Below, piece after piece: positions 1-62,880 of a stretch of DNA of 64,000 nucleotides. Numbering within the stretch: the first letter of the stretch is position 1; the number at the start of each line of letters is the position of its first letter. This stretch comes from an uncultured virus (IMG/VR IMGVR_UViG_3300030117_002316) (taxonomy: Duplodnaviria; Heunggongvirae; Uroviricota; Caudoviricetes): IMG/VR virus record IMGVR_UViG_3300030117_002316, positions 1 through 64,000 of that record; one strand, 5' to 3'. The position numbers and the translations under genes were made by a program. A model generated the notes under the pieces. The model searched no databases. It was not told the origin of the DNA and saw only the letters and a program-made list of their open reading frames with translations.

Positions 1-1159
1 GAGAGGTATCATCTGTGGGGATACTAGTTGGCCGATCTCCTCTGCTCAGCTTGAGCAGTGGGGCAGTGATCTTGGTGAAGATCTCGGTCTTGATGACCAC
101 GGTATGGAACGACTGACACAAGGCAAGAACCCTATCAGGTTCCTTGAGAGTGGTGGTGATTGGCTTCTCTTCTGTGAGGCCAAGAAGTACCTTCAAGCAA
201 AGAGGACGGGACGCACCGATGCGTTCTGTTACATCGATGCTGCTGCGTCAGGTATTACCCTGAAGGAGCTGTCTACCGGCTTCCCCAACGCAGTTCTCAA
301 TGCTGACAGTCGTCATCCAGATTGGAATCACCCTTATGCTCGCTACTCCGCTGATCTCTTGGCACGCCATGAGATCAAGCAGGCTATCCGTGGGTATGCT
401 GGTATTCCACTCCCGGTTCTCATCGAACAGGTTCGACAAGCGATGAAGCCGGGTATTGTCGCTGGTGGCTACGGAGCCAGCGGTAACAGGATGGCGATGA
501 GTGTACTCGGAAACCCTGTCGATGACGAGTGTCCTGCTACCCCTGAAGAAGTGACTCTGGCTTTGCCTGAGCCATTCAATCGGTGGGTTCCGAAGGATCC
601 TAAGAAAGACTGGGTGGAACAGTTCAGGAAAGACTTCAGAAAGCCCTTCAAGGCTTCGATGAATAAAGTCTTCCCAGCAGATACGAAGCTGAGTAACCAT
701 CTCCAGAAATTCTGGACTGGTCATGTTGGCAAGGACTACCTGTCCGACCCACCTGCATGGGTGATTGATGGTTTCGTGCATCAACCCAAGAGGATTCGTC
801 GTAACCGTGATGAGCATACTGCTCTTCACTACCCCTGTCCCATCACTGGGAAGACTACGACGATCCAACGGAACGTGCTCGAGATTAACCGGGGAACAGA
901 ACTGCTCCCCAACCTTACCCACGCTATGGATGCGTTGATCATGCAGATCTGCGTACTCCTGATGAAGATGGAAGGCATTCCTGTGATTGCCATTCATGAC
1001 TCCGTGGGCGTTCCTTACCCATTCCTGAGGCGAGCTAACCAGCTCTACGTCGAGGCCGTCAACTATGTGATGTCCTTGAACGTCTGGGCTCAGTTCGGAT
1101 TCAAGGGCTACGGCCCTATCCCAGTGCTCGATCCTGACACTGGCCTCCTGCGTCGTTGA
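1..1159 (+). CDS. Divergent T7-family single-subunit RNA polymerase, C-terminal catalytic part (5' truncated by window edge)
   Basis: Frame is open from base 2. Motif A-like YIDAAASG (~230-253), motif B RQAMKPGIVAGGYG (Rx3Kx7YG, 434-475), PNLTHAMDA and motif C IHDS (992-1003), in T7 RNAP order. Confidence 0.85.
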   Translation, partial: RGIICGDTSWPISSAQLEQWGSDLGEDLGLDDHGMERLTQGKNPIRFLESGGDWLLFCEAKKYLQAKRTGRTDAFCYIDAAASGITLKELSTGFPNAVLNADSRHPDWNHPYARYSADLLARHEIKQAIRGYAGIPLPVLIEQVRQAMKPGIVAGGYGASGNRMAMSVLGNPVDDECPATPEEVTLALPEPFNRWVPKDPKKDWVEQFRKDFRKPFKASMNKVFPADTKLSNHLQKFWTGHVGKDYLSDPPAWVIDGFVHQPKRIRRNRDEHTALHYPCPITGKTTTIQRNVLEINRGTELLPNLTHAMDALIMQICVLLMKMEGIPVIAIHDSVGVPYPFLRRANQLYVEAVNYVMSLNVWAQFGFKGYGPIPVLDPDTGLLRR

Positions 1160-1178
1160 TTTGTTTGTTACCTCTAAC

Positions 1179-1210
1179 GGAGGGGCTGGCGTAAAGCCTG
1201 CCCCTCCTTT
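1179..1210 (+). terminator. Stem-loop after early RNAP gene (terminator-like)
   Basis: GGAGGGGCTGGC-GTAAA-GCCTGCCCCTCC followed by TTT. Confidence 0.55.
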
Positions 1211-1283
1211 CACCGAGAGTCAGGTGACTCTCACACTTGGGGAATGTGTTTATTCCCTGTTACCTCTTTTAAGGAGACTCCAA

Positions 1284-1961: not shown

Positions 1962-1973
1962 TCCTTCGCCCCG

Positions 1974-2005
1974 GTCCTTGTGCCGTAAAGGCACAGGGAC
2001 TCTTT
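1974..2005 (+). terminator. Stem-loop after ORF (terminator-like)
   Basis: GTCCTTGTGCC-GTAAA-GGCACAGGGAC followed by TCTTT. Confidence 0.55.
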
Positions 2006-2064
2006 ATATGCTGGCCGCATGGCCCACCAACGACTTAACTCGTTGACGGGTGGCAATTATTTCG

Positions 2065-2315
2065 GGGCTGCCGCCCTATATATGATGTATGTAGTATACC
2101 TAGTCATCTACCATATGTAGTATGACGGTATAGTTGGGTTTATAGATATATCCCACCATAGTCTTCCTTAGTCTGTATCCTCTATAGTCTGTCTAACTTG
2201 GGGGTATGGATTTAGGATTTAATCATGATGATTTATAACCAGACTTAAAGACTTATGTCAGACCAGAGGGGGCTACCGCCCCTGTCGAGCCATCGGATGC
2301 TCGGGCTGCCGCCCT
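2065..2315. repeat. Three copies of GGGCTRCCGCCC mini-hairpin (2065-2076, 2269-2282, 2303-2314)
   Basis: Direct repeats, each an inverted repeat with a 4-nt loop, in non-coding DNA. Confidence 0.8.
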
Positions 2316-2362
2316 CGCTCCAATGGAGGGCAGCCGATTCGAACGGCTAACTGGAGGTACGT

Positions 2363-2602
2363 ATGGCGAAATCCACGCCGCCTATCGTGATCGACTGCTC
2401 TGAGATCCCTCAGGGTGGGAAGATCAAGGTCCGGAAGGTGACCTCAGCGTCTATCCGCAAGCGGTTCCTTGCAGAGGGGAAGGAAATTCTCCGTCGAAAG
2501 GGAACCGAGATGCAGTATAGCGATGAGGCCGTCGACCGATTCATCGTACGGGCTAAGGAAGCGGGAGTTTCCTTCTCGGATACTAAGGTATTCCGTGCAT
2601 AG
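2363..2602 (+). CDS. Hypothetical early protein
   Basis: GGAGGT RBS, 79-aa ORF. Confidence 0.7.
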   Translation: MAKSTPPIVIDCSEIPQGGKIKVRKVTSASIRKRFLAEGKEILRRKGTEMQYSDEAVDRFIVRAKEAGVSFSDTKVFRA

Positions 2603-2628
2603 ACCCGTCTGCTCTTTTCCAAGCCCCT

Positions 2629-2719
2629 GAACAGAGGGTGCTACCCCGGTCCCTTATGTAGGACGGGGACACCCCTGTTCGTACTGGGCACACGCATGGT
2701 GTGTGCCTAGTACGAACAG
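2629..2719. promoter_or_regulatory. Two overlapping long hairpins
   Basis: Compound hairpin 2629-2680 and a 19-bp stem 2675-2693/2701-2719 share nt 2675-2680. Confidence 0.6.
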
Positions 2720-3345: not shown

Positions 3346-3363
3346 ACACTCAGGAGAACTAAA

Positions 3364-7970: not shown

Positions 7971-8285
7971 ATGGCTAAGAAGAAACCCAGCCTATCTATT
8001 GACGGACATGATCAAGGATACGGCGGAACTTTTAACGCACACAAACATTGGAAGAAACTCCGAGAGAAACATAGACGCGATGATGCACACCGAGCAAGAG
8101 GTGGCAGTAGAATATGGAAGCCTGAAGTATATAGATCAAAGGGTGCTGGTAAGGGTGATCAGGAACGTCAATCACAAGTACCAAAAGAACTGTACGATTT
8201 AAACTTTGACCTTGCCTTTGGTAATATTACAAAGGAAGAGTACGAAATAAAACTAAAGGAACTCACTAGTGAAGACTTGGAATAG
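7971..8285 (+). CDS. Hypothetical basic protein
   Basis: Strong AAGGAGG RBS; GAGKGD motif. Confidence 0.7.
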   Translation: MAKKKPSLSIDGHDQGYGGTFNAHKHWKKLREKHRRDDAHRARGGSRIWKPEVYRSKGAGKGDQERQSQVPKELYDLNFDLAFGNITKEEYEIKLKELTSEDLE

Positions 8286-10713
8286 TTTATCTGACCAGCA
8301 GCAGCTGGCCCGAAGAGAAACACAATACGACTACGAACGTCAGATGTTAGACTACGGGCGTGAGCGTTACTGGAAAGATTACAACCGAGCACCAGACGAG
8401 GGCATACCTGAACAGGAGCTAATCGATTCTTCTGTTGTTGAACTTGAATCTGTGTACCAAGAGTGGATTGATAATGTGTGTCAGTCTACCAAGTCACCGC
8501 AGTGGTTGTATCCTTTGCTTGAGCTAGGTGCTCGCAAGATGGCGGACATAACCATGCGTGCTGTCGTTCGCAGCTGGTTCTCTAGTGGATTCTGGGGATA
8601 CAGGTGGAACGAAGAACAACACACCCCACCGCTCGCTCAGTCTGTTGCTACTCAGATAGCACAAGATGCTTGTGACATCATGGGATTCCAACGTGCTAAA
8701 GAAAACAAACGAGAAGACTGGATGCGTCAGTCCAAGTTCATAAAGAACTGGACTACCAAAAGATGTAAAGCATTTGCATTAAAGATGGGTGAGAATATTA
8801 ACCTGTCTATTAAACAGAAGCATGACTTCGGACACCACATGCTACGCATTGCTGCGTGCTCTAACATTATCTTACTTAATCCTAAAACAATTAAGAAGGG
8901 TAGGATGTTTAAGAAGTACACCTTTGTAGAGATACATACAACTGTACTTAAAGAGTTACATAAACGCCATCACTTACTCGAGACATCTTCATTGGTTTAC
9001 AGGCCAATGCTTGCGCCGCCTGAGCCTCATACTCTTGTTGAGTCTGGTGGCTACCAAACAATAACTATCCGTAAACCTGTAGTTCAGGGATACCGATCCA
9101 ACTTCTTTGGTGAGTACCCAAAGTCACAAAAGTTTTCCGAGCCCTCTCAATTAGTTCTCGATGGGCTCAACGCAAAGATGAAAACCGAGTGGTCCATCAA
9201 TGAGCAGGTGCTTGAGGTGATGGAGACCATGTTCGAAAACAACAGCGGACTCGCTAACCTACCCTATTATTCCTTTGATGAGTTCATGTTTAACGAGCCC
9301 TACCCTAAAGATGGGTCAAAAGAAGAGCAGGCTATCTGGTGCCAGAAACGTGAGGAGGCATGGGGGGAATGGTACAAGCAAGAGCAGGGCCGTGGCCGTA
9401 TGCTGGTCAGGCTCAAGCTAGCCAAGGATCTAATACCTCACAAATTCTTTTACCAAGTCTACACCCTAGACTTTAGAGGTAGATCATATACAGCATGTGA
9501 ACTTCTGTCCCCTCAGTCTTCTGATTTAGATAGAGGATTAATCATGTTAAGGAACGGACAGAAGCTAACTGATCGTGGCCGTTACTGGCAGATGGTTAAC
9601 CTAGCTAATCTGTTTGATCAAGATAAACTTCCGTTTGATAAACGTGTTGCTTGGGTAGAAGATAATTGGTGCATGATTCAAAGGGTAGCTAGAGATCCAT
9701 ATAGAAACAAGGAGTGGATAGATGACGCAAAGAAAAAGAACAAATCTTTTCAGCGCCTTGCTGCTATCTTTGACATATGTAGGGACGACGGCTATAGCTA
9801 TATCCCTACTAACTTAGACGGTAAGTGTAACGGAAACCAACATCTCAGTGCAATCATGGGTGACCCTGTTATTGCCAAGCTGACTGGTGTTACGCCTTCA
9901 GACAACCCTGAAGATCTGTATCAGTATGTTGCTGATGTCACTACCTTATACTGCACTGAGCATCAAGAAGAAAATGATTGGCATAAAGAATTCCTCAGTC
10001 ATTGGGAGGAAGAGATTCCTCGTAAGGTAACTAAAAGATCTACTATGTGTGACGCATATGGACTTACGTTCTACGGCATACAGAAATACCTAAAGATAGA
10101 AGGACATCTTGATTGGGTTGAAAGAGAAAGAGCTGGTGGTGCTATTGTAGAATTGTCTAGAGCAATACAAGCCAGCCTCAATAGATCTTTGGTTGAACCC
10201 AACAAAGCCAAGGCTTACCTTAAAGAAGTTACAGGCAAGGCTAACGAATTAAACAAGCACCTGTCTTGGACTACACCTAGTGGCTTCAAAGTTGTACACT
10301 ACTATAACCAAGTACAGACAAGAAGATCACTAGCTAAATTGTTTAACAACAAAGAGTTAACCTTCTTTGTCAGGACATCAGACGTAGACTCAAGAGGTGC
10401 AGTTCAGGCTATCTCACCCAACTATGTGCACTCACTAGATGCCGCACATATGTTTCTAACAATTAACAGAATGGCCTTGACAGGCATCGAAGATTTTTGT
10501 ATGATACACGATTCATTCGGCTGTCATCCTAACCAAGTAGATGATATGCTGATAATAATCAAAGAAGAATTCCTAAGGATACACAAGGACAACCAGCTGG
10601 AGAAGTTTAAGATAGAGATAGAACGTCAGCTAGGAGTCCAGCTGCCCCCAATCCCTGAGAGGGGAGATTTAGATTTGTCAGGGGTTTTAGAATCCCAATA
10701 CTTCTTCGCATAA
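8269..10713 (+). CDS. T7-type DNA-directed RNA polymerase (gp1-like)
   Basis: DFRGR, motif A DGKCNGNQH, motif B RKVTKRSTMCDAYG, PNYVHSLDAAH, motif C IHDSFG, C-terminal YFFA. Confidence 0.98.
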   Translation: MKTWNSLSDQQQLARRETQYDYERQMLDYGRERYWKDYNRAPDEGIPEQELIDSSVVELESVYQEWIDNVCQSTKSPQWLYPLLELGARKMADITMRAVVRSWFSSGFWGYRWNEEQHTPPLAQSVATQIAQDACDIMGFQRAKENKREDWMRQSKFIKNWTTKRCKAFALKMGENINLSIKQKHDFGHHMLRIAACSNIILLNPKTIKKGRMFKKYTFVEIHTTVLKELHKRHHLLETSSLVYRPMLAPPEPHTLVESGGYQTITIRKPVVQGYRSNFFGEYPKSQKFSEPSQLVLDGLNAKMKTEWSINEQVLEVMETMFENNSGLANLPYYSFDEFMFNEPYPKDGSKEEQAIWCQKREEAWGEWYKQEQGRGRMLVRLKLAKDLIPHKFFYQVYTLDFRGRSYTACELLSPQSSDLDRGLIMLRNGQKLTDRGRYWQMVNLANLFDQDKLPFDKRVAWVEDNWCMIQRVARDPYRNKEWIDDAKKKNKSFQRLAAIFDICRDDGYSYIPTNLDGKCNGNQHLSAIMGDPVIAKLTGVTPSDNPEDLYQYVADVTTLYCTEHQEENDWHKEFLSHWEEEIPRKVTKRSTMCDAYGLTFYGIQKYLKIEGHLDWVERERAGGAIVELSRAIQASLNRSLVEPNKAKAYLKEVTGKANELNKHLSWTTPSGFKVVHYYNQVQTRRSLAKLFNNKELTFFVRTSDVDSRGAVQAISPNYVHSLDAAHMFLTINRMALTGIEDFCMIHDSFGCHPNQVDDMLIIIKEEFLRIHKDNQLEKFKIEIERQLGVQLPPIPERGDLDLSGVLESQYFFA

Positions 10714-48852: not shown

Positions 48853-51800
48853 ATGAGTGACAACACTTGGGCTTATACGCCCATTCCGCTGACTACAGGA
48901 AGTATAGTAGAAGAGGAAATGTTAAGAGAGCGAAGAGATAAAGCTCTTCGGACAGTAGAAAAAATCCCCTTCTATAAAGATACACCTGATTATGCAGCAG
49001 CATTTGAATCTCCCCTTATCTTCCAAGATATAGATTCAGGAGAAATTGTCAGGGGCATGATGCATACAGCAGAAGCTTCTAGGCAACAAATGAAAACTGA
49101 ACTCACTAGAGGTTTTACTTCCAGAGATAAGGGTTTCCAGCAAATGGTTTCCCAGCAAGCAGTAGGTGGTAGAGACTTAGAAAAATATGAAAACACTATT
49201 TTGGATTTAACCGACGCACAAGAAGAAATCTTAACGTCAGGTGCTGAAGGTCCGCAATGGAATCTTGAGTTTTGGAATTATTCGGTAGATGATATTCCAA
49301 TTTATGATTTAGCTGTAGGTGGACCAGAAGATATACTAAACGATGAGCCACCAGAGGGATGGAGTGTAGACTCAGCTATAGAAGTCTTTAAGGAATCAGA
49401 TCCGGAATTATACAATATTATGTCTCTATCTTTAGGTGGAGATTCTGGTATTGCTGAAATTGTTAAGGATGCTAGAAACCCTATGGAGTTCTTTGTTAAG
49501 CTTCAGCAAAGACAACAGCTCCTTGCTATTACTGAAAGTCAACAAGAGTTTGATAGAAGAAGCGGATGGTTCGGAAGACAATACGAATGGGGTAAAAACT
49601 TTATTGTAAATGGTATTTTAGATGATCCAGATATGGCAGGATCTATCGCTCTTTCTCTAGGTTTATTAGTTACAACAGGTGGTATTGGAACAGTAGGAGC
49701 TATAGCTGCTAAGGTAGGACAGACAGCCTTGAGAGGATATAAGTTCGCAAAGGCAGGCAGAGCTGCCAGAGTAGCGGGTAGAGCTTTAGCAACTAGTGCA
49801 AAATACGGACGACAGGCCCAACATTGGATGCCAGAAAACTTAGGACCAACTTTAGTTAAGAGCGTCTTATTTAAGAATAGGTATCAAAGCTGGAGCGGAT
49901 TAAAAAGATTTTCTGTAAATAGACTAGCTGACTCGGCTGAAGGTACAATTAGTGGTGGTATTGCAGAGTTCTTTAACCAGAATAGAATGAAGGGACTTGG
50001 GATTACTGATGATATCAGTTACACCTCAGTCTTAGCAGAAGCAGCAGTAGAAGCTATGGTGTCTCCTATGATTAACCCCGGTATGGGCCAAGCTATGAAA
50101 TTAGTTGGAGCCGTCTCTGCTGTACCCGGAACACTGGGAGCGATGGCTTGGGAAGGAACTATAGGAAAAACTGAACTAGGAGAATTCTTAGGAACTCTTG
50201 GAGAGAAAACTATAAGTATGTGGAATCCTGATTCTGTTATTACTTCTATGGATGCCTACGATAAGAAAGAAGAAATCTTTGCATCTATGAATTCACTATT
50301 AGTAGAAGGTGAATCTGTAGGAAAGTCTTTAGATGAAAATGAATTATTAGCAGGTCTTTTAGAGACCCTCAAAGTAACTACAGAACTAGATGATCTTACT
50401 TTTCTTGATAAGATAAACGGTGCTTTAGGAGAGCTAATCCTAGCTAGAGATAATGCAACGGGTACTCAAAAGAAAATGACTGGTCTTGAACTCGCTATTG
50501 GGTTAGCTAATCAGTTGGCTACTAAAGATCAAGACATCAAGGCAGCTATGCAGGGAGATAACTATACTGAGTTTATGTCGGTCTTAGGAACCCAAGTAAC
50601 TATAGCACAGAATGCTAGAAGAGAAAACAAAACTATAGATGAGTATTTAGATGATGTGAATGAAAAAGGAAACTATTTCGATCTTCTTCCCGATGTTCTA
50701 AAGGAACGGGTTTATAAAGAAAACGGCGGCAAAGCGGTAGTAGATAAACTTACTGATAAAGCAAAGAGAGAAAAGGCAGCCGAGATACAGCTTGAGATTG
50801 TGAAGAAAACTAGAGAAGTTCACAACAATTTCCAAGATAGAACAGACGAACAGACAAATAAAATTGAAAAGATTGAAAGCGACGCTAAGAAAGTTGCTAG
50901 GAAGCATAAGGTAAACCCTCCTGTTATTACCGTTGTTGAAGAGAAAACAGATACAGACTTAACAGATACAGACTTAGCTGATACAGAAGAAGAAGCCATA
51001 GTAGAAAAAGAACCTTCTTCTGGAATGATGCAGCACCAAGAAAACATGGACAAAATTAAAAAGGGTAGAGCAGAGTTAAGAAGGGTAAAAGAAGAACTTA
51101 AGAAGAAACATGATAATGCTTCCGATGCTGACGCGAAAGAAGCTCTTGAAACAGACATTAAAGAAATTGATAACCTTTTGTCAGAAATGGCCGAACTAAG
51201 TAGGAAAGCTACTGAATCAATGAATGTTTATTTAAGAGAATCGGGGCAGGACAAGAAGCTGATTGAATTAGGTAGGACTCTTTCTACAATTGTAGCAGAT
51301 GTTAAAAAGTTTGAAACAGATAAAGTTAAGCCTTGGGAACAAAAAATGCATAAATTCGCTAAACCAAGGCTGGGGATACAGCAAATACAAATTAGGTTTA
51401 TGCGTGAAAACTTTAAAGAAGAATATCCAGATGGTCTTCGCTATTCAGATTTAAACTCGGATGAACAAGCAGCTATAAATGATGCTATAGAAGTTCTTGA
51501 GGGTAGGGGAAGTAAGTATTTAGAAAGAGTTAGGGACGGCGAGAAGATAAGCATTAAACAATTGAAGCAAGTTGTCGAAAGAATTGGCAATAGAATGAAA
51601 AAAATCCACGATGATTTTGAAAAATCCTCAGAAGGACGAGAGTGGGCTGATCATGTAGAAAAACAGAATAGAGCATTAGCAGATTACCAAGTTGCTTTCG
51701 CACAATACCAACAAGAGAACATGGTTAGTGAAGTTATCCGCATGGCGCAAGTCAGGGGCATTGCTGAAACACAAAAACTTAGAAGAGCAAAAGAAGCTCA

Positions 51801-54800
51801 GCTAAAAGGAATGAGAAAAACCGTAGATCAATTTATTAGTGAACATGTTGCTGCTAATCCAGATACCCCCATTTCTGCTAAACAAGTTATAGATAGACTG
51901 CCTAGATGGTCAAAGTTAAGAAAGAAACTTGAGAGTAACAGAAACAAGGGTGAGTCTTCTATTAATGTTGCTGAATTAAAAACTATGATTGATGAAGATT
52001 TTGCCGACATGAAAAAGAATATTCGAGTAGGAAAGCAAGACCCTAGATACAGAAGATTTAAAAGATCAGACGCTGTTAAAGATAGATATAAAGGTCGGTT
52101 TGCTAATGAAGTTTCTGATAGTGAGATTCTTGATGTGGACTATGATCAAGATTGGTTGGTTCAGAATATTGAAATAGGATCTCCTGTTAAGAGTGGAGCT
52201 TTATTTTCTATAGAACAAGACTCCAAAGCGTTTGCAGAGTTTAAAGCAAACCTATCTGATTTGTCAAATACGGTTGGAGCAATAGACAATGAAGGAACTA
52301 TTTCTGCTTGGAGACTTACTACAAATATGCCTGAGTATTTCTGGGACTTAGGTCTTCCGCTTCACCTTATATTCAGAGAAGCAATGATTGATCCAGAGGG
52401 AACTGAGGGAGCGAGTAAAAAAGGAATTGCTACATATTGGTCAGGCAACGAGGAATTCTCCCACGCTAGGTTTGACTATGCTACGGTAATGAAAATTCTA
52501 AACACATGGCAACAGATTACTAAATCCAGATTGGAAGGAATAGTAGCAGATCACGGTAAGAACATCGCATCAGAACTATTAGAAGAACTTTTAGAAGAAG
52601 GAAGCTCTTCTAATTTACCAAACTTACACAGAACAGTAGAGTTTTTAAATAACGTAATAGAAGCTGATAGAATATTTAACAAAGAACGATTTGAAGCAGA
52701 CGGATTCATTTTAACAGTTGATGAAGAAACTGGATTCCCTGCATCATTTGCTAAACAAACTGACGGCCATAGATTTGTAGGTGCTGTTAAAAAAGCTATC
52801 CACCAAAGAGTTGAAGTTTTAATGGGACGGAGAAAATATCGAGAAGCTCTTCGTGGGTTAATAGGCCTCGATCCAAAGAAAAAATTTGAGCGCGAATCTC
52901 CGGAAGCATTGAATAGTAGAATAGCTCAGGAAACAGCCGACATTACAAGTTATATTATGTCAGAACTTTCAGATCTTTTAAATACAGTGGGACCAGAACA
53001 TCTTAATTATATAGAATATACTATTGAAGGATTTGGTAACGGAGAGATTTCGTGGTCCTCTCCTAAACAAGCGGGGGATGGGATTGTTGATACCATTATT
53101 GGAAAGCTTGTTCCTGAGAAGAGCAGGCTTTCAGGAGTAGGAGAAGTACCAGATATCCCAACTACAGAATCTAGAGTAATAGGACAATCTGTCAGAACTG
53201 CTGCTCCTTTAGAGGCAGATACAAATGCAGCGGCTCCTGTACCTACTTGGGAAATTAGAAGAGCAGTAGAAAATCATAAGTTCAGATTACGGGTTAGGGA
53301 AGTTTTAAAAAGAGCTGAATCAGGTAAACCTTTAACCCAAGCTGAAAAAGATATCTTATATAACAAAGCACACGCTGAATATAAAGAATCTAGACTTAAG
53401 GATAAGATGGATCCAGTAGCTGACGAAATGGATGTATATGTCGTCCCTCAGATTATAGGAGGCCATCTTCAGGAAAGGATAATGACAAGAGGAGAAGCTA
53501 AGGAATTCATGTTAGAGATTTTCTTAGATATGGCTCATGTTAGTTACTCCTTCATTCAAGATGCTCAGACTATTGCTAACGGTGGAACTCTTAGATTTAA
53601 GAATACTGCTGAGAATCCACAGCCACTGGCAATAGCCGGACTAAATGTAGGATACGATAATATTGTTCCTTGGGGACGTTTAGGAGAAACCCTTGCTCTG
53701 GAAGAGATGTCTCCCAATTTAAAGGGGATGACTGAAACAGTAGCTACTGCTCACTTAGCTTGGTTGGCCGAACGTAAAGAAAAATGGTTAGCTAATAATC
53801 CGGGCAAGGAATGGAATATAAATGAAATCCTAAGTGACTCAAATCAAATTGACCAAGTAGGTAGTGGACTCCAGATTACTACATTACTTTCCCGTATAGG
53901 TGATGAGGGGGTTGCTAGACAGCTTGGTGAAATAGAAGCACTATTAGCTGGCGACAATGAAAACAGGTATGAGTTTTTAGATGAGAATGGAGATGCTAAA
54001 GTAGATGAAGACGGAAACTTTATTAGCTTAGCTTTAGAAGATATATACGTTAATAGTGGCTTGGGTGCTGTCGCTGCCATGAGAGGGAAGCATTCTGATA
54101 ATGAGTTTATTCAGGGCTCTGGTCAGTGGAATACCGTAGTATTTAAATGGCTGGCAGACAATAATATCAATACCGCAGAAGATTTTAGAAATGCTCTTGC
54201 TACTATGGAAGGTCAAGAATTAAAGAAGGCTAAGGCTTGTAGAGAATTCTTTAAGATTCCTGTCTTGCGTCGTTTATATGGTGGTGGTCTTGATTCTTGG
54301 AAATTAGAGTTTATTGGGGCAAACCCTAGATCTCGTGAAAAGATAAAAGATTTAGAGGCAGCTTTTGCAGATGAGAATTTAAAGTTTACTGACGAAGAAT
54401 TATTAAACTTAGGTAAGTCTTGGTTAGGCCACGCTGGTAAAACTGTAGGCCATATCCTTGATGCTGCTATGGGCTTTGAGGGCACGATGAGAAAGAAGGC
54501 AATGTCTTTCTATACTCAAGGCAGAAGCTCACAAATGCTTTCTGAGGCGTGGAGAGATATTGTACAATCAACTACGATTCCTGCTAGGGATAGCGAGACT
54601 GCTCAGGGGGCACAGGAGTTGGTAGGTGAGGACGGCGGAATTCATGTTATGGACCGCATCGAGCGTGTTAAGAGAGACTTAGATGCTAAATTAGATTGGT
54701 TGGCTGAGAGAATGCCCGGAGATCCTGATAAAAATAGAATTGAATTAGAAGAAAAGTATCAGGATAGATGGGGTAAAGCAAGAGAGTTTATAGAAGAAGT

Positions 54801-57800
54801 AGAACGCAAGGGTGAGAATTTAAATGACGGCAGCCCTAACTGGGAACGTTTACAGGAAATACTTCACGGTAATACTATGAGTTGGGAAAACATTCGACTG
54901 TTTAGAGCTACGAATATTCTAAACGCAAGTGCATATAGTTTGAATATGCAACGAATGAAGCAAGTAGCTAACGATTTTGGATTCCCTGATTTTGATCCTG
55001 AAGACTGGATGGGACTTGAAAACCAACTATTATTCCACTTAAACCTCCCAACACAACGTTCTCCAAGATCCTATAGTGTAGGTGGATTAGATACTCACGG
55101 TATCTTTGCAAATAGAGTAGCAGTAAATCCTGAAAAGTTTACTGCTTTCATGCAAGAAGCTAAAGAAAGAGTATTGCGAGAAGAGGGACGAGAGTTTACA
55201 AGAGAAGATTTTGAAGAAGCTCTTGGAGACTGGTTAGAAAATAGAGATCCAGATGCTATGGGTATGTTTGATATGAAGGATAATATCTTTAAGGGAGAAA
55301 CTCGAGAAGATGTGGATGCCGAATTAGATAGGCTAATGGATATCGATCAGCTTCTTTATATGGCAGGAGAAGATACTTTAGATCCTAAACTATTCCCAGA
55401 CTACCATGCAGAAAGCAGTGAGATAGCAGTAATAGATAGTTTAAATAGGATGTGGTATGAGCATAATGAAAAAAGATTCCGTACTCCAGAAGGAGAAACT
55501 GATAGGACTATAGCAAGCGAAATAGAGTTTGAGGAAAGAATGTTAGCTAGCGGAGAACACGGCAGGGCTATCTTACTCAACAGAGCTAAAATTCTTGGTG
55601 GTTATAGAAGCTCTAAAGTTGCTAAGGCTATGGGCGGAGCTAAGGTTGAATACCACAGACGAGAATACAGTGCTTCTGAAGCTATTGGAACTAAAGAAGA
55701 ACATGATTTATATATGTCTACCGTAGCTCCTCAGGGTCCGTTGTCTTTAACTCCCAAGTATAAACGAATGTCTTATTTCAATAGAGGAATCCCCGCTCTT
55801 CAAAGAGAAGGAGTTCAGAGACAGATAAACGAAGTAATGGCTCCTATTGCCAGAATTGATCCAACGTTAGCAGATACCGCTATCGATGCAAGAGTAGGAG
55901 ATACTACTAACAAGGGAGTAAGTATCTTTGAAGATCATCCAGCATTGTTAGGATGGAAGCCGCCTTGGAAAAGAGAGAATCTTCCAATGCCAAGACCTAT
56001 CAGGATTGATGAACTGTTAGAGCTTAATATTGATGATGAGATTGGACGCAAGGCTGTTACCATTCTTCAGGATATGAGAGAGTGGGCTTCTCTTAGACCA
56101 GACGTACTTGAAGATTTAGAAAGTCCTGAGGGATTGATATATTGGTACGTTACTAGAGAGATAGAACGTCTTAGAGAATCCCAGCTTAATGATTTGCCCG
56201 CATATGACGATTTTAATACAACGGAAGAAGAAGGGCTTGCTTATGCGAGAAGATATAGAGAGAAGTGGTTGAAGGGCTTACACGATCTTACTCATTTCTC
56301 CAGAGACATTAAATACGGATCAGCTAAGGGATATACTTTGTCTGATAGTGCTAGAGAACTATCGGTCCAAGCTGCAAAGTATGGGGAAGAAAACATTACA
56401 GAGCCAGAATGGTTAGAGCTTTTGACATCTAGAATGTCTGAGAATAATCCTAGAGGTATTGGTTTGTCCTCGCCTACTAGATTAGATAAAGCACTATCGT
56501 TCATTCTTCCTAGAGAAAACGTAATATTAATAAATAAGTTGGGACAGAACGGAGCTAAAATAGAAACAAACGAGTTAAAAATGTTAGCTCAGTTGATACA
56601 GTCTACCGACTTTAATCTCCATCTTTTAAGTGTACTGTATACAAACGAAATACTTCCTAGTGTTTTAAAGGAGTTTACGGTTACTCTTCCAGATGGGAGT
56701 ACAGTTAAACCCTATGCTGATAAGAAGTTTAAAGCCTTAGATAGCGAGGGAAATATACGACGTAACTCTAAGGGTGAAGTAATTGAATTAGCTATGTGGG
56801 AAGATCCTAATCTATGGGAACAATATATAGATCCTAGTCACATCCATGCTATTATCGCTCAAGCTAAAGAGTGGGTAAAGAAGAACGGAAAGGATGACAT
56901 TGTATTTGATACTTTGATTGAGACCCAGATTACAAGTGATCCTAAAGTAGCTGGCGGTAAGATGGAAAAGATGAAAGTACATCTTGCTTCTTCGACTCCT
57001 GATGCTGTTGGTGGCAGGCAAGGATCAAAGCTTATGCCTCACGTAATGGGTGGTAGTGTATTTAGAACTGTCAATACGCAGACCGAAGTTACAGGTAAGG
57101 GAACACTGGCCCTTACTCCAGACAAGGCATTAGAATTATTTGCATACTTAGAATCTATGCCAGTAATTATGAAATCCCGAAGATCTCAGTGGGGGAACAT
57201 TGCACTTGGGTTTGAACGAGATCCGGTAACCGGTCTTCCTAGAGAAGTCCAACCTGTTTCAAGAAGTATTGAAGAAGGTCTTGGACATAGCGAACGAGAG
57301 ATTAGAGAAGCAGAGATTAAACGAAGCAATGCTCTTGAAAGAATCATAGCCACTAAGGAAGAAACAGGAATTAACGTTAGGATGGTTGCAGATGAGACAA
57401 GAACTACTGAGGGTGGTGCTATAGTTCAAGTTGTAGATTTGGATCACTATTCTAAAGGAGACCATGCTGCAAGAATGGGCCGAAGAGATTCTTGGTTTGA
57501 ATCATTCCTTAGTCCGATTGAAAAACAAATTGGATACTTAAAGGCTACAAATATTCATTCAGGAACCTCTCCTGCCTTATTAGCACAACTAGAATCTGTA
57601 GTAGAAGGAGCTAGAGAAGCAAATCTTGCAGACGACGTAGACGGAGATTTAAATGCAGCTGTAGCAATGTGGTTAGGTATTATGCTTCAGTTAGATGATT
57701 GGAATAAGTTTATACAATTAAAATCATACGGACCAATCTTTAAAACTTTCATTGGTCAGGATAGGTTCTCTAAAGCAACCAATGCTGAAGCTTTTGCTCA

Positions 57801-60800
57801 AGCTAAAAAATTAGCCCGACAAATTAGACAGGTTGCGGGAATAGACTGGCGTGGTGGAGGACTTACTGGACAAAGGCATACGAATTTAATAAACGCAATA
57901 AGAGAATGGGCTTCGCATGCCGCAGAGGAAGAGGGATTAAATGCAGAACTTTCTCCATCAGAAAACTTTAAACAGTGGGTAGCAGAAAATAGAAACACTG
58001 TGAGAAAGAGTCTAGGGATAGATGTTGTAGATTGGGAATCATTAGGCTTTACTTTAGAAAACGATGAGTTAGTATTTGAAGGTATTGGAGATAGCAGAGA
58101 TCCGGATGTGCCTGCTGAAGAAGAACTTAGATATATTGTAGAATATGCTATAGGCAAAGAATTATTAGATGTTGAACAAGATAGTAATATCACAACATTT
58201 GAAACCGATGAATCAAGATTAAACTCTACGGGTAAAGATTTAATTCGCTTAGTAAAAGATCCTGATGAATTTAGAAAAGCTGTTAACCGTACTGGAGACA
58301 TGAACCTTCGTCGAGTTGCGTCTGATTTAGATGGACTGGAGGGACAAGTATCCCCTCGAAATCTTGAAAGGCTTAGAGCGTTAGTATCCAGAATGTGGGC
58401 AATCAACCCAATGAATCTTCTTGATTTAGAAATAGGCAGAGACTTTGTAGCTAGAGAAGGAAAGCCTAGAGTAAAAAGATCCGAAGATGGTAAGTTTGTA
58501 ATACGGATGGGAAATAAATTAGACACTCCCCTTAATGACCCAAATGTTGCGTTAGTATTTGCGCACGAACTAAGTCATATGGGTAGAATGAAGTGGGTAG
58601 CAGATAATAGTGGAACATGGAGACAGTGGGTAGATCTCTATCACAGTAAGGCAGGAAGAACTCTATTAGCTAAAATTGTTCAAGCTTGGCACGGAGGACA
58701 GTGGACAGCTGTTGCTGAACAGGAATATAATTCCTACTTGAAAGATCCAGAAGAATTTATAGCTGCGTTAACTTCTTATTATTTAGTTAACGATTCCCTT
58801 CCTGCTCTTGAATTAGACGAGAACGAAGGCAGAGTTCTGGGAAGGGCTGATTCTATTATTGATCGTATTTTAGATTTTGTAAGACAGCATTTCTTAAGAG
58901 TAGCTTCAGTCCTTACAAACTTCCACTACGAAGATCCTAAACTTGCAGGACATGTTGAATCCTTAATACAGAAAACACTGGGATGGGATCCTGAAGGAAA
59001 GAAAGCATTCACTGAAATACAAAACGAAGGTACTACTCGTGAAATGTTCTGGGATAAAAGATTTGAAGATCCTGCTAATGATTATATCTATAGCTTAGAT
59101 GAGCTTCAAACAAAAATCAAAGAGCACAGTGACTTGGCTGAATTGGGAGAAGACAGAGACGATGCCCAAGATTCTAGATTTCTTAGATTAGATGAAGAGC
59201 TTAATGATCCAAGATCTGGTGCAGATCACATGCTGGCAGCAGGGCTTTCAAGATATGATTATGAAATAGCCCATGCAGAAAATATGGAAAGATTTGCTGG
59301 TCCTAACGGAACGCTAGACTTATCCGCTATGATGAAATCTATTGATACAAGTAGAGGAGACGCTGTAAACATGACAAGTATGGCGGCTGCTTTACAGTAC
59401 GCTATGACAAAATTAGATGACACATACGGTGCTCAATTCCGTCAGGGTGGTGGCGTTGTTCTTCATAAGATTATGAAGGCGGCAACAATGATGCTATCTA
59501 TGGGACACGGAGATCCTGTTAAGTGGGCTAGAGGATTAGCAGACTTAACCGTAGGTAAAACAGGAGCTAACCATACTTGGAATGGTCCTCATCCTTTTGA
59601 GGCATTATTGACAATGTTAATAAATGATGACATTGCTACAACTATTGGACAGTACACTAATGTACGGGGTACACCGTCTGTTAATCGTAATGTTGTGGGA
59701 ATGATTGCTACATATCAGGAAAGAATCATAGCGTCCCAAACAAAAATCACAAACTTGCTCCAGCCTTGGATGACTAAATTCTTAGGACACGAGGCACACT
59801 TTACAACAAAGGCCAAAGAAAGAAGTGCAAAAATTTGGGATGCTGTTTACTTTGAAATTATGCGCAAGACCGAAAACCCAAACCACGAAGTAGAACTATC
59901 AAAGCTTGTTGAAGATGGCATGGGAGTAGAGTTAGCTGGTAAGATTAAAACAGAAATAGAAAATATTGCTTTATCATTGTCTAAGTTTATGCAGGACTAT
60001 ATGGTTGCGGGCAAAGAACTTGGGGTTATCAGTGAGCACACAGCAGACGATACTCACACCCTTCCCTACAAAATGACAAAACGTTTAAACGAATACGATG
60101 CTAGATCTGGATTTATGAATAACATGGGTACAATGCTTCAAGATAAAATCATAAACACAGAAGAATTAATAGATCCTGTCGTAATGTATTGTGGAGGTCT
60201 TCTTCCTAGATTTGATACTCTTAAAGGTCTTAAGAATGATTTAGAAGAAATAAAGAATGTAGATAACGGAAGCCTATTCCAGATGATTGCTTATAAGGCA
60301 GCAGAAGCTGCTAATAAAGCAGAAGGTAAGGACATAGAAGACAGAGCAATAGTGGCAGGTAGAAAGCAGGCTGTTGTTAATCAGTTATATTCTGCGGATG
60401 ATCACGTTGCTACAAATGCTTTAGAACACTTTAGACAGGGTGTTTTAACAATCATGCGGGAAATGGGACATAAGAGACTTACTGTAAGTGAACTTAAGAA
60501 TGACCATAATATTAATTGGGATGCTTTTAAAGATAGGTATGAAAGAGCTGCTTCTAAAAATCATGTAGTCCAAGGAGACAGAATACAGGCATTAGACAGC
60601 CCAGCATTGGATGCAATAGTTCCAGACTCTATTCACTACTCCCCCGGAAGAACAACCGCAAGAAAACACCATGTAATGAAAATTAGAAACGCAGTAGATC
60701 TTCACTTACATAACTTAATGAATCGTGCGTCCGCAGGTATGTACTATACTTGGGATATGTGGTCTATGCCTACTGTTCTTGAAGCAGCCTCTGATCCAGT

Positions 60801-62880
60801 AATCAGACCTCACCTTATTCTTAGTCCTAGAGATATTATGGATGATATGAAAAAAGGCAGAGGCGATAAGATGTTTGAAAGACAGATGATGGTAGATGAG
60901 TTTAATATCTTTGGAGATGTATCTGATCTTCTGAATTTATTCGAAACGGTAGCTAGTAGAGGACCGGGAGAAACCTTCTATAACTACGACGGAACTCCCG
61001 TTTCTAGAGAAACCCAAAACCACATGGTTAAGTCTGCTCAGGTTCTTAGGGGTAAGCACGATGTTACAAGAGGAATTAAGCACTCAGCTGAAGGACCAAG
61101 TAGTACTGAAAATATCTTTATGCAAATGGCTCCGGGCATTACTAGAACAGTATTCGGAGGAAACCTTGCAATGGCAACTGCTACTGTTGAAGGAATGATG
61201 AACGTCCTTCAGGAAGCTTTGGGCAAGGGTAACATTGTAAACGCACTGCGTGGAATCTTTGCTCCTATCTTAGGTCTTAGTCGAGAGGGACAGGAAAGAG
61301 TTGCTAGAGATCTTGTCCATACCGTAGAGGCTTTAACTAAGGGACACCTTCCTGATCACGAAATGCCAGCTAATGCAATACAACAGAATTGGGCAGTAAA
61401 GGCTGTAAACTTTACGGGTAGACAGGCAATGCGACCTGCCCAGCATATGTTGAAAACTATTGCAATGTCTAGAGCTGTATCAGCTAGAAACTTTATTACA
61501 GACAATCTTTTACATAAGACAACTAAGGGTAAAGACGGATCCCGTGTTCCCCGTCTTGAAAGATTGGCTCAGTTAATTAGGGACGAACCTTTAGGGGACG
61601 ATCCCAAAGCATTAAGAGATAGAATGCGTAAGGCAGGATTTGGTACGATATTAGCAGGAGACCTCCCCCTTATTTCATATATGTTAAGAGCGGGAGTTTT
61701 AAATCTTGAGGACGGATCCTTTGATAACCTTCAGTCTATGGTTAAAGAAGGAACACAAGAACACAGGTACTACAGTCCGGGTGAGATGTTAGGTAAGTTA
61801 CACAGGAGTGGTCTTGAAGTAACCGATCCCGAATATCAATCAAGAAAGAAGATTATCTCTGGTCTTAGGTTTATTGAGAAGGGCTATATCGAAGAAGTGC
61901 TGGTGGCTCCTAATGCCTTTGATATCTTTACCCCAATGGTCAGTAAGACAGGAGAGGTATCTGGTGTGGGTGCAATGGATACCTTGTTTGAAATCTTCCG
62001 GCGATACCCCATGCTCTTCGTTAGTCAGCATATTTATCGTAAGGCCAATCGTCTTGATTTTACTCGGTTTGCTTTTGGTGCAGCTAGTATGATTATGTTA
62101 GATATGGTTTACATGCTTGCATTGAGATTAGCTATGGGTGCTTATCCTGAAGACATCTGGGATGAGTTTGAGAAAAACCCTGTACAGTTTACAATGCTGT
62201 ATGCCAGTAGGCTGCCTATCCTTGGTCGATACATGGGATTCTTAGCAGAAGCTACAGCTCAGGTTACAAGCATGGCTCAAGGTAGAACCACCAGACAGCC
62301 CGGTGGATTTGTCCCAACGGCAGCAGTATTCACAGCCTTGGGTGGAGGATTAAAAGCAGGACAGTCTTGGTTAGACGACGAACCCCATAAGTGGCAGGAC
62401 ACGATTAATGCTGCTAGGGTTGTTCCCCTGCTGGGCGAGGGTATCCTTCGCTTAGGGATCTACACAGCAGCCGGAGACAGCATTACAAGACGTAAGCACA
62501 GCTCAGGTGGAGGAGGGTCCGGCTCAGGCTCAGGAGCCCCTATACACTACGGAGTGACCTCTCACGCTCTCAATCAGGGATATAATGTAGAATTACGTAA
62601 GCTTCTAGAGGAGTTCTCTGGGCAGCAGCTTAGGTGGCCTCAGTATGAGGCTCAGCGAAACATGAGTATTCCATTTAGGGATACTACTGTGCCTGAGGTT
62701 CCAAAGGAAATGGAAGGAATGACTCCTCCACCAAGGATGCCCTCCACCTCTGTCCCAGAGCCCGCCCCAGCCCCCGCCTCGCCTCCCGTCCCCGCGCCGA
62801 CTTCAGTTGAGCCCGATATGGTAGATCGCCTTAGAGGGCAACAGGGGACATCTGGTAAACTAGCAGACGCACTGGGGTAA
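48853..62880 (+). CDS. Giant (4675 aa) putative internal virion protein with RNAP-like domain and zincin motif (candidate virion RNA polymerase)
   Basis: Motif A-like DQVGSGLQ (D1667), EDIY, motif B REFFKIPVLRRLYG (R1797), AHELSH (H3238) followed by EEFIA; N-terminal hydrophobic/Gly-rich segment like ejection proteins. Confidence 0.75.
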   Translation: MSDNTWAYTPIPLTTGSIVEEEMLRERRDKALRTVEKIPFYKDTPDYAAAFESPLIFQDIDSGEIVRGMMHTAEASRQQMKTELTRGFTSRDKGFQQMVSQQAVGGRDLEKYENTILDLTDAQEEILTSGAEGPQWNLEFWNYSVDDIPIYDLAVGGPEDILNDEPPEGWSVDSAIEVFKESDPELYNIMSLSLGGDSGIAEIVKDARNPMEFFVKLQQRQQLLAITESQQEFDRRSGWFGRQYEWGKNFIVNGILDDPDMAGSIALSLGLLVTTGGIGTVGAIAAKVGQTALRGYKFAKAGRAARVAGRALATSAKYGRQAQHWMPENLGPTLVKSVLFKNRYQSWSGLKRFSVNRLADSAEGTISGGIAEFFNQNRMKGLGITDDISYTSVLAEAAVEAMVSPMINPGMGQAMKLVGAVSAVPGTLGAMAWEGTIGKTELGEFLGTLGEKTISMWNPDSVITSMDAYDKKEEIFASMNSLLVEGESVGKSLDENELLAGLLETLKVTTELDDLTFLDKINGALGELILARDNATGTQKKMTGLELAIGLANQLATKDQDIKAAMQGDNYTEFMSVLGTQVTIAQNARRENKTIDEYLDDVNEKGNYFDLLPDVLKERVYKENGGKAVVDKLTDKAKREKAAEIQLEIVKKTREVHNNFQDRTDEQTNKIEKIESDAKKVARKHKVNPPVITVVEEKTDTDLTDTDLADTEEEAIVEKEPSSGMMQHQENMDKIKKGRAELRRVKEELKKKHDNASDADAKEALETDIKEIDNLLSEMAELSRKATESMNVYLRESGQDKKLIELGRTLSTIVADVKKFETDKVKPWEQKMHKFAKPRLGIQQIQIRFMRENFKEEYPDGLRYSDLNSDEQAAINDAIEVLEGRGSKYLERVRDGEKISIKQLKQVVERIGNRMKKIHDDFEKSSEGREWADHVEKQNRALADYQVAFAQYQQENMVSEVIRMAQVRGIAETQKLRRAKEAQLKGMRKTVDQFISEHVAANPDTPISAKQVIDRLPRWSKLRKKLESNRNKGESSINVAELKTMIDEDFADMKKNIRVGKQDPRYRRFKRSDAVKDRYKGRFANEVSDSEILDVDYDQDWLVQNIEIGSPVKSGALFSIEQDSKAFAEFKANLSDLSNTVGAIDNEGTISAWRLTTNMPEYFWDLGLPLHLIFREAMIDPEGTEGASKKGIATYWSGNEEFSHARFDYATVMKILNTWQQITKSRLEGIVADHGKNIASELLEELLEEGSSSNLPNLHRTVEFLNNVIEADRIFNKERFEADGFILTVDEETGFPASFAKQTDGHRFVGAVKKAIHQRVEVLMGRRKYREALRGLIGLDPKKKFERESPEALNSRIAQETADITSYIMSELSDLLNTVGPEHLNYIEYTIEGFGNGEISWSSPKQAGDGIVDTIIGKLVPEKSRLSGVGEVPDIPTTESRVIGQSVRTAAPLEADTNAAAPVPTWEIRRAVENHKFRLRVREVLKRAESGKPLTQAEKDILYNKAHAEYKESRLKDKMDPVADEMDVYVVPQIIGGHLQERIMTRGEAKEFMLEIFLDMAHVSYSFIQDAQTIANGGTLRFKNTAENPQPLAIAGLNVGYDNIVPWGRLGETLALEEMSPNLKGMTETVATAHLAWLAERKEKWLANNPGKEWNINEILSDSNQIDQVGSGLQITTLLSRIGDEGVARQLGEIEALLAGDNENRYEFLDENGDAKVDEDGNFISLALEDIYVNSGLGAVAAMRGKHSDNEFIQGSGQWNTVVFKWLADNNINTAEDFRNALATMEGQELKKAKACREFFKIPVLRRLYGGGLDSWKLEFIGANPRSREKIKDLEAAFADENLKFTDEELLNLGKSWLGHAGKTVGHILDAAMGFEGTMRKKAMSFYTQGRSSQMLSEAWRDIVQSTTIPARDSETAQGAQELVGEDGGIHVMDRIERVKRDLDAKLDWLAERMPGDPDKNRIELEEKYQDRWGKAREFIEEVERKGENLNDGSPNWERLQEILHGNTMSWENIRLFRATNILNASAYSLNMQRMKQVANDFGFPDFDPEDWMGLENQLLFHLNLPTQRSPRSYSVGGLDTHGIFANRVAVNPEKFTAFMQEAKERVLREEGREFTREDFEEALGDWLENRDPDAMGMFDMKDNIFKGETREDVDAELDRLMDIDQLLYMAGEDTLDPKLFPDYHAESSEIAVIDSLNRMWYEHNEKRFRTPEGETDRTIASEIEFEERMLASGEHGRAILLNRAKILGGYRSSKVAKAMGGAKVEYHRREYSASEAIGTKEEHDLYMSTVAPQGPLSLTPKYKRMSYFNRGIPALQREGVQRQINEVMAPIARIDPTLADTAIDARVGDTTNKGVSIFEDHPALLGWKPPWKRENLPMPRPIRIDELLELNIDDEIGRKAVTILQDMREWASLRPDVLEDLESPEGLIYWYVTREIERLRESQLNDLPAYDDFNTTEEEGLAYARRYREKWLKGLHDLTHFSRDIKYGSAKGYTLSDSARELSVQAAKYGEENITEPEWLELLTSRMSENNPRGIGLSSPTRLDKALSFILPRENVILINKLGQNGAKIETNELKMLAQLIQSTDFNLHLLSVLYTNEILPSVLKEFTVTLPDGSTVKPYADKKFKALDSEGNIRRNSKGEVIELAMWEDPNLWEQYIDPSHIHAIIAQAKEWVKKNGKDDIVFDTLIETQITSDPKVAGGKMEKMKVHLASSTPDAVGGRQGSKLMPHVMGGSVFRTVNTQTEVTGKGTLALTPDKALELFAYLESMPVIMKSRRSQWGNIALGFERDPVTGLPREVQPVSRSIEEGLGHSEREIREAEIKRSNALERIIATKEETGINVRMVADETRTTEGGAIVQVVDLDHYSKGDHAARMGRRDSWFESFLSPIEKQIGYLKATNIHSGTSPALLAQLESVVEGAREANLADDVDGDLNAAVAMWLGIMLQLDDWNKFIQLKSYGPIFKTFIGQDRFSKATNAEAFAQAKKLARQIRQVAGIDWRGGGLTGQRHTNLINAIREWASHAAEEEGLNAELSPSENFKQWVAENRNTVRKSLGIDVVDWESLGFTLENDELVFEGIGDSRDPDVPAEEELRYIVEYAIGKELLDVEQDSNITTFETDESRLNSTGKDLIRLVKDPDEFRKAVNRTGDMNLRRVASDLDGLEGQVSPRNLERLRALVSRMWAINPMNLLDLEIGRDFVAREGKPRVKRSEDGKFVIRMGNKLDTPLNDPNVALVFAHELSHMGRMKWVADNSGTWRQWVDLYHSKAGRTLLAKIVQAWHGGQWTAVAEQEYNSYLKDPEEFIAALTSYYLVNDSLPALELDENEGRVLGRADSIIDRILDFVRQHFLRVASVLTNFHYEDPKLAGHVESLIQKTLGWDPEGKKAFTEIQNEGTTREMFWDKRFEDPANDYIYSLDELQTKIKEHSDLAELGEDRDDAQDSRFLRLDEELNDPRSGADHMLAAGLSRYDYEIAHAENMERFAGPNGTLDLSAMMKSIDTSRGDAVNMTSMAAALQYAMTKLDDTYGAQFRQGGGVVLHKIMKAATMMLSMGHGDPVKWARGLADLTVGKTGANHTWNGPHPFEALLTMLINDDIATTIGQYTNVRGTPSVNRNVVGMIATYQERIIASQTKITNLLQPWMTKFLGHEAHFTTKAKERSAKIWDAVYFEIMRKTENPNHEVELSKLVEDGMGVELAGKIKTEIENIALSLSKFMQDYMVAGKELGVISEHTADDTHTLPYKMTKRLNEYDARSGFMNNMGTMLQDKIINTEELIDPVVMYCGGLLPRFDTLKGLKNDLEEIKNVDNGSLFQMIAYKAAEAANKAEGKDIEDRAIVAGRKQAVVNQLYSADDHVATNALEHFRQGVLTIMREMGHKRLTVSELKNDHNINWDAFKDRYERAASKNHVVQGDRIQALDSPALDAIVPDSIHYSPGRTTARKHHVMKIRNAVDLHLHNLMNRASAGMYYTWDMWSMPTVLEAASDPVIRPHLILSPRDIMDDMKKGRGDKMFERQMMVDEFNIFGDVSDLLNLFETVASRGPGETFYNYDGTPVSRETQNHMVKSAQVLRGKHDVTRGIKHSAEGPSSTENIFMQMAPGITRTVFGGNLAMATATVEGMMNVLQEALGKGNIVNALRGIFAPILGLSREGQERVARDLVHTVEALTKGHLPDHEMPANAIQQNWAVKAVNFTGRQAMRPAQHMLKTIAMSRAVSARNFITDNLLHKTTKGKDGSRVPRLERLAQLIRDEPLGDDPKALRDRMRKAGFGTILAGDLPLISYMLRAGVLNLEDGSFDNLQSMVKEGTQEHRYYSPGEMLGKLHRSGLEVTDPEYQSRKKIISGLRFIEKGYIEEVLVAPNAFDIFTPMVSKTGEVSGVGAMDTLFEIFRRYPMLFVSQHIYRKANRLDFTRFAFGAASMIMLDMVYMLALRLAMGAYPEDIWDEFEKNPVQFTMLYASRLPILGRYMGFLAEATAQVTSMAQGRTTRQPGGFVPTAAVFTALGGGLKAGQSWLDDEPHKWQDTINAARVVPLLGEGILRLGIYTAAGDSITRRKHSSGGGGSGSGSGAPIHYGVTSHALNQGYNVELRKLLEEFSGQQLRWPQYEAQRNMSIPFRDTTVPEVPKEMEGMTPPPRMPSTSVPEPAPAPASPPVPAPTSVEPDMVDRLRGQQGTSGKLADALG

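Follow-up and report, generated by a model that had tools for sequence, protein, structure and literature searches.

The window, the whole stretch of 64,000 nucleotides analysed here, belongs to a 65,014-nt contig of an uncultured tailed virus that is circular by a 99-nt overlap. The gene content is that of a T7-like phage, with a polymerase, T7-type replication genes, head-tail adaptor, scaffold, capsid, tail and terminase. The region that starts at about 62.5 kb and runs over the join to 4 kb has a GC content of 49–56%, compared with about 40% elsewhere. Three tRNA genes (Met CAT, Arg TCT and Leu TAA) are found at 12973–13200. Three short inverted repeats, HP1–HP3, lie about 0.9 kb downstream of the gene for a minimal T7-type RNA polymerase; after HP3 the order is a 79-aa ORF, the CTGCTCTTTTCC motif, small genes and then the canonical polymerase. 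The coordinates are collected in Table 1.

Table 1. Features of the hairpin locus and of the polymerase candidates (window coordinates).
Feature	Position	Strand	Remarks
599-aa minimal T7-type RNA polymerase, 3' part	1..1159	+	start at contig position 64275 (to 65014), across the 99-nt overlap
ORF of about 225 aa	1284..1961	+	between minimal polymerase and junction; a 170–260-aa ORF at the same place in relatives
Terminator-like hairpin	1973..2001	+	closes the last gene before the junction
HP1 mini-hairpin	2065..2076	-	minus strand GGGC-GGCA-GCCC, plus strand GGGC-TGCC-GCCC; left of the AT-rich block
AT-rich short-repeat block	2077..2268		about 191 nt, GC 0.35; conserved core TATAGTTGGG at 2129–2138; putative terminal-repeat flank or boundary
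HP2 mini-hairpin	2269..2282	-	minus strand GGGGC-GGTA-GCCCC, plus strand GGGGC-TACC-GCCCC; G at the N4 +1 position
Possible longer stem with HP3 at its tip	2290..2326		arms 2290–2297 and 2319–2326
HP3 mini-hairpin	2303..2314	-	33 nt after HP2; plus strand GGGC-TGCC-GCCC
79-aa ORF	2363..2602	+	directly after HP2/HP3; 53% to L007, 31% to L016
CTGCTSTTTTCC	2609..2620	+	resembles a class II pause such as the T7 concatemer-junction signal; a similar function is possible
Canonical T7-type RNA polymerase	8269..10713	+	814 aa; 98% coverage, about 28% identity to top cultured matches
4675-aa protein	48853..62880	+	candidate virion polymerase or ejection protein, with 2 cysteines
Motif A-like D1667 and motif B-like R1797-K1801-Y1809 of the 4675-aa protein	53851..54288	+	invariant in 5/5 and 6/6 sequences (overlapping sets)

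The earlier note described three repeats at 2065, 2269 and 2303, each followed by T and reading GC-GGYA-GC on the minus strand, and all of them are present at these positions. A scan of the complete contig finds the motif GGGCTRCCGCCC three times, all at HP1–HP3, and not once on the other strand; a fourth look-alike at 1105 lies within coding sequence and has a loop that is not GNNA. A three-member hairpin family arises in 0 of 1000 dinucleotide shuffles of 1941–3300. It is the clustering that makes the repeats significant, because whole-genome shuffles give a family of the observed size (four members, including the one at 1105) in 6 of 100 cases. The genome as a whole has 17 C:G-closed GNA/GNNA hairpins with stems of at least 4 bp.

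The sequence definition of the GC-GN(1–2)A-GC mini-hairpin fits the minus strand in all three copies, which likely fold as stable single-stranded DNA mini-hairpins. GNA and GNNA loops are closed by a sheared G-A pair, and DNA of this type is very stable to heat and to nucleases. ViennaRNA energies do not favour the minus strand for these hairpins. A strain variant, seen in contigs X2, X4 and X9 from three runs, changes HP3 only at the variable loop base 2308 and carries a 1-base insertion after HP3, in its spacer; at 2322 it renders the arms of the long HP3 stem fully complementary. The depth of these contigs is 3–4, so that single differences are weak, yet they recur. The long stem itself is a predicted fold in L007, L016 and L015 and was recognised by eye in the window, where predictions for plus-strand RNA and minus-strand DNA favour other pairings.

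The AT-rich block that follows HP1 is 184–259 nt long, and in eight junctions its GC content is 0.32–0.38; 13-mer matches of the L007 and L012 blocks to T7 right-end repeats are weak (E ~0.06). The motif CTGCTSTTTTCC is present in eight of nine junctions (L009 ends before the site), preceding the small ORF in three and following it in five, and its T7 counterpart is ATCTGTT at T7 nt 161. The T7 concatemer junction, CJ, is classed as a class II pause in 10.64898/2026.02.12.705533. Taken together, the gene order, the terminator, the AT-rich short-repeat block and the class II-like motif point to a terminal-repeat junction: judged by gene order and by the sequence make-up of the contigs, the hairpin site looks like such a junction, and likely the genome end. 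The contig depth is about twofold at 2419–2622 in X4 and not in X2, and contigs L009, X2 and X6 end near HP2 while X4 and X9 cross it; neither depth nor contig ends place the genome ends. There is no excess of sigma-70 sites in 1100–4400 (2 found, 3.0 expected). Family and profile searches with the 79-aa ORF gave no family above the cut-off; a weak match to TelK_N (E=0.006) fell below it and was not accepted.

For the analysis of conservation, nine junctions were compared, namely those of the window, L007, L009, L012, L013, L014, L015, L016 and L021 (the last placed by eye). Left out of the junction counts were L006, which is the same genome (99.96%), L008, which ends before the junction, and L010, a weak short match. 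Further metagenome and contig scans for relatives yielded no additional genome, and contigs L002–L005, from a tandem-motif scan of viral contigs, proved to carry unrelated tandem repeats and were dropped. C:G-closed GNA/GNNA hairpins of at least 4 bp number 15 on the minus strand and 2 on the plus strand, the minus-strand ones being distributed over seven of the nine junctions; 0.66 are expected and the maximum in 500 shuffle sets is 5, although the loci are related to each other and the hairpins are not independent events. The stems (GGGC/GCCC, GGCC/GGCC, GCCC/GGGC, CCGC/GCGG, GACC/GGTC and CCCC/GGGG) are all different with pairing kept, that is, compensatory, and the pattern C-G(N1-2)A-G is constant. 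The 15 minus-strand loops are GGA (5), GAA (6), GGCA (2), GGTA (1) and GGAA (1), so that 11 are of the GGA or GAA type found in N4.

The copies of the window stand apart from those of its relatives. All three have a GGYA tetraloop, whereas 11 of the relatives' 12 hairpins have a loop of 3 nt. Copies within a genome are closer to each other than copies from different genomes (mean edit 1.45 vs 3.47, permutation p=0.0007; p=0.07 when the window is omitted). That the window copies differ jointly from the relatives' form suggests one shared reader, or copying between sites. A syntenic GNA/GNNA counterpart of HP1 is found in L007, L009, L016, L013, L015 and L014. HP2 has counterparts in L007, L013 and L015; L012 keeps its 2-bp core only, and the HP2 site of L014 and L021 has a 6-bp hairpin with an AAA/TTT loop. 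HP3 has counterparts in L007, L016 and L013 and an imperfect one in L015. The L012 junction has no C:G-closed GNA/GNNA hairpin of at least 4 bp, though the giant gene is present, and the L021 junction has no C:G-closed GNA/GNNA hairpin. On conservation in related phages, by which the earlier note would have its proposal judged, the outcome is therefore divided: structure, position and strand are kept in seven of nine junctions and two are devoid of such hairpins. Conserved, strand-biased hairpins with compensatory stems nevertheless indicate a selected, strand-specific structure; the hairpins are real and conserved.

Three T7-type polymerase candidates are encoded in this one T7-like genome. 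The minimal polymerase, more than 200 aa shorter than the canonical enzyme, matches PHROG 414 (E=7e-6) and, below the cut-off, Pfam RNA_pol (E=0.0013). Neither as a single query nor as an alignment did it find a match in viral contigs, and a search of solved structures with its profile gave 0 matches. The same profile collects 74 representatives at E up to 0.001 (P0001–P0084), many of them 550–640 aa long, and by these matches short T7-type polymerases form a sizeable family. The giant 4675-aa protein is a candidate, a virion polymerase predicted from its motifs alone. The residues concerned, which we take to be motifs A and B, are unchanged among relatives 22–54% identical. The giant protein has no Pfam or PHROG match, and motif C was not located. 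With hhalign its domain reached 0.2% against the N4 mini-vRNAP and 0.4% against the polymerase of the phage itself, and solved structures gave only matches with E above 0.2. AlphaFold models reached a pLDDT of 46 and 47; Foldseek with the second found no match, which is uninformative at such quality. Atlas searches gave no usable match.

In 5/5 IMG/VR contigs found via the giant protein (two of them weak matches), the giant gene adjoins the minimal one, and the minimal polymerase gene stands upstream of the junction. Both genes are fast-evolving: identity among relatives is 24–53% for the giant domain and 22–52% for the minimal polymerase, compared with 80–91% for the terminase, 74–96% for the primase and 60–85% for the endonuclease. 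More generally, the ejection-type and terminal genes (41735–64000 and 1–4000) diverge faster (22–74%) than the core genes (60–96%). A repeated T7-type promoter family of at least four members was not found in the intergenic DNA of the whole contig, despite the intact T7-type polymerase.

The promoters of the N4 virion polymerase (vRNAP) are template-strand hairpins with a C:G closing pair and a loop with a 5' G and a 3' A, contacted at -8G, -10G and -11, as set out in PMC4496689; PMC13037366 gives the loops as GGA or GAA. Transcription from them begins beside the hairpin, with a template C at +1 a fixed distance away, and depends on supercoiling and SSB. The window shares with N4 P1–P3 a template-strand hairpin, the C:G closure, the G...A loop, a purine after the first G and the number of sites, three; as in N4, these would lie near the presumed entry end of a genome that encodes a giant, cysteine-poor protein with T7-type motifs. 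It differs in having loops of 4 nt, not the 3-nt GNA of N4 promoters, stems of 4–5 bp, and sites within 250 nt that are not spread before early genes; no copies were found before other early genes. In contrast with Schitoviridae, the phage has a T7-type head, tail and gene order and a one-piece polymerase rather than a split RNAPII, and in contrast with N4 vRNAP its giant protein has no detectable profile match.

At the level of single positions, the closing C:G, the G...A loop and a purine at -11 occur in 15/15 hairpins, the first two being search criteria as well. Template -8G, -10G and -11G, counted from the downstream side, are present in 3/3 window copies, and -8G in 4/15 overall. A G at the N4 +1 position is found in 7/15 hairpins (6/8 for HP2/HP3 and 1/7 for HP1, a split drawn post hoc) and in 1/3 in the window; the terminal-repeat hairpins of T7, T3 and phiKMV have it in 0/3. 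By loop size and by the +1 position the window's hairpins fall outside the definition of a bona fide N4 promoter, and its phage does not belong to Schitoviridae. The proposal of N4-style promoters thus survives in part. It gains from the conservation of structure, position and strand, from the GGA/GAA triloop of the relatives and from the candidate extra polymerases; it loses by the window tetraloops, the +1 position and the two junctions that have no such hairpins. N4 hairpins were seen at nt 90 and 557, presumably P1 and P2, and are 5 edits apart on the within-genome measure used above. The distance of the first from the genome end is about equal to that of the repeat hairpin in T7, T3 and phiKMV.

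Phage LUZ7 provides a second comparison. According to 10.1101/2022.03.18.484859, a small gene of this phage is preceded by a pair of strong early hairpin promoters with a spacing of 33 nt, and its middle promoters, served by a small middle polymerase, have loops of 3–4 nt and stems of at least 6 bp. The window likewise has stems of at least 4 bp, loops of 3–4 nt when relatives are included, and a tandem pair before a small gene; HP2 and HP3 are 33 nt apart in the window, 30 in L007 and 19 in L013. The LUZ7 spacing fits 10/15 hairpins, little above chance for two positions. The LUZ7 starts are mapped, whereas those of the window are predictions, and the 79-aa ORF is similar to no family. The literature covered, which excludes most subscription papers and the original T7 concatemer work with them, describes neither hairpin promoters nor a virion polymerase for any T7-like phage.

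We tentatively favour the view that HP1–HP3 are promoters, hairpins of the template strand read by a phage polymerase that evolves fast, most probably the domain of the giant protein, a reading whose probability we put just short of even. The single-stranded minus-strand C-GGYA-G hairpins would form at the putative junction. If the junction is the genome end, HP2 and HP3 enter the cell first. The hairpin would then extrude, and the polymerase might grip loop and stem as N4 vRNAP does, with a start about 11–14 nt to the right of the hairpin and transcripts that take in the 79-aa ORF and the early region as far as the canonical polymerase. The reader would be the predicted polymerase domain of the 4675-aa protein, injected with the DNA, or alternatively the 599-aa minimal polymerase. 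HP1, on the left of the AT-rich block, may serve transcription across the repeat for packaging, or may be an end-making hairpin; the two functions can both hold, for different copies.

The most serious competitor, which we consider possible but on the whole improbable, is that the hairpins are end-making signals only, as in T7, with no transcription start here. HP1 would be the counterpart of the M-palindrome, and HP2 and HP3 those of the hairpin inside the T7, T3 and phiKMV repeat. In the M-palindrome mechanism, which yields a covalent hairpin end during concatemer processing, the minus-strand 3' end left by a nick folds back on a mini-hairpin and so serves as primer for a second copy of the terminal repeat; end-making requires the same minus polarity. 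The earlier note did not take into account that the site resembles the terminal-repeat junction; T7-like phages that have no virion polymerase carry minus-strand GNA/GNNA hairpins there too. As controls, the right ends (last 700 nt) of 10 cultured T7-like phages were counted; 11 had been fetched, and Caulobacter phage Cd1 was left out, its record ending in genes with no repeat annotated. To our knowledge these phages have one polymerase and no virion polymerase. Their ends contain 12 minus-strand and 3 plus-strand GNA/GNNA hairpins (3.74 expected, 0/300 shuffles; e.g. L025, L029, L031, L033, L035 and L032), four of them C:G-closed against 0.8 expected (1/300). A hairpin stands to the left of the repeat by 195 nt in T7, 189 in T3 and 176 in gh-1, the last with a tetraloop; that of T7, at 39583, we take to be the M-hairpin. 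C-GAA-G hairpins follow at repeat nt 66 (T7), 79 (T3) and 76 (phiKMV). In T7 as in the window, minus-strand GNA/GNNA hairpins flank an AT-rich short-repeat block about 200–270 nt apart (loop spacing 263 in T7 and 269 in T3, 196–241 in the window and relatives), and in T7, T3 and phiKMV a class II-like motif follows. The T7 M-hairpin adjoins gene 19.5 and affects concatemer processing, according to PMC2680503. The persistence of hairpins with other loops at the HP2 site of L014 and L021 also fits end-making. A minus-strand hairpin at this place, even one with a tetraloop, is therefore no proof of a promoter.

Several observations argue against end-making as the sole function. In the controls, the three hairpins to the left of the repeat have a T:A closing pair and a middle base that varies (C, A or T), whereas the copies in the window and its relatives are uniform, C:G-closed and purine-centred. 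The M-position hairpin is dissimilar to the repeat hairpin of the same genome (9 edits in T7, 6 in T3), none of the controls has a tandem C:G-closed pair, and 2/10 have no minus-strand hairpin. Change in the hairpins is not matched by the end-making proteins, which are conserved; with polymerase candidates that diverge fast, this shifts the balance toward the promoters. A counterpoint is that hairpin type does not simply track giant-protein identity, L016 and L015 having one type in common despite giant domains only 22% identical. Much less probable is a role of the hairpins as replication origins or as signals for primers: beside mini-hairpins that resist SSB, the T7-type primase or the 599-aa polymerase would prime DNA replication from the end. 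Hairpins of the type d(GCGNAGC)/d(GCGNNAGC) are known at the G4 origin and RSF1010 ssiA, as PMC13037366 relates. The minus strand of the window is GC-GNNA-GC exactly in 3/3 copies, and both the window and the five IMG/VR contigs have a minimal polymerase gene on the upstream side of the junction. Those signals belong to single-stranded replication, however, and the window to a double-stranded tailed phage; cumulative GC skew has no turning point at the hairpins, and the primase is conserved (74–96%) while the hairpins change.

Slightly less probable again is a role as RNA structures in plus-strand transcripts, such as a leader of the 79-aa ORF or processing or pause sites. At one position of the long HP3 stem of L007 and L016 the plus strand pairs as G-U where the minus strand has a mismatch, and other structured elements lie in the region downstream. 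Every minus-strand loop is nonetheless G...A, and we know of no special stability of the plus-strand loops UCC, UUC, UGCC, UACC and UUCC. A UUCG reading leaves a single closing pair, and Rfam gave no family at gathering level. The chemistry of mini-hairpins (PMC13037366) explains the choice of strand as DNA; an RNA structure could fit the long HP3 stem and not the mini-hairpins. A chance repeat in a GC-richer region deserves hardly any credence. The whole-genome shuffles and the 17 comparable hairpins in the genome leave some room for it, but the local shuffles, the excess in syntenic junctions and the compensatory stems do not, and conservation already refutes it.

The promoter and end-making readings may also be connected by descent. 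In a scenario that we regard as unlikely, though less so than replication or RNA signals, a T7-like lineage turned ancestral terminal-repeat hairpins into promoters for the injected 4675-aa polymerase, which would be unrelated in profile to that of N4, and the lineage of the window re-tuned them to GGYA. If so, an independent hairpin-promoter system would exist outside Schitoviridae, with a three-polymerase cascade in a T7-like genome, and there would be a clue that the first N4 promoter and the T7/T3/phiKMV end hairpin share descent. If HP1–HP3 are promoters at all, virion polymerases that read hairpins occur beyond the N4-like phages, and hairpin recognition can be tested directly with oligonucleotides, using the naturally occurring triloops and tetraloops together with the enzymes that match them. 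Even under end-making alone, the strand bias of GNA/GNNA hairpins at T7-like ends offers a chemical explanation, open to test, of the fold-back priming by which the terminal repeat is duplicated.

Some further elements are found around the locus. A GAGAGTC-N4/6-GACTCTC hairpin at 1215–1258 and the motif next to it follow the minimal polymerase gene and are kept in L007 and L009, and a GAGGCC...TAGGCCTCGTG hairpin upstream of the same gene is common to L007 (2516–2530) and L008 (1393–1415). The stretch 2620–3330 is non-coding with long hairpins and likely contains structured RNAs. It includes a manA-like Rfam match at 3133–3327, which is weak (E=0.015) and below gathering, and a block at about 3150–3240 that, by eye, the window shares with L014, L015 and L021.
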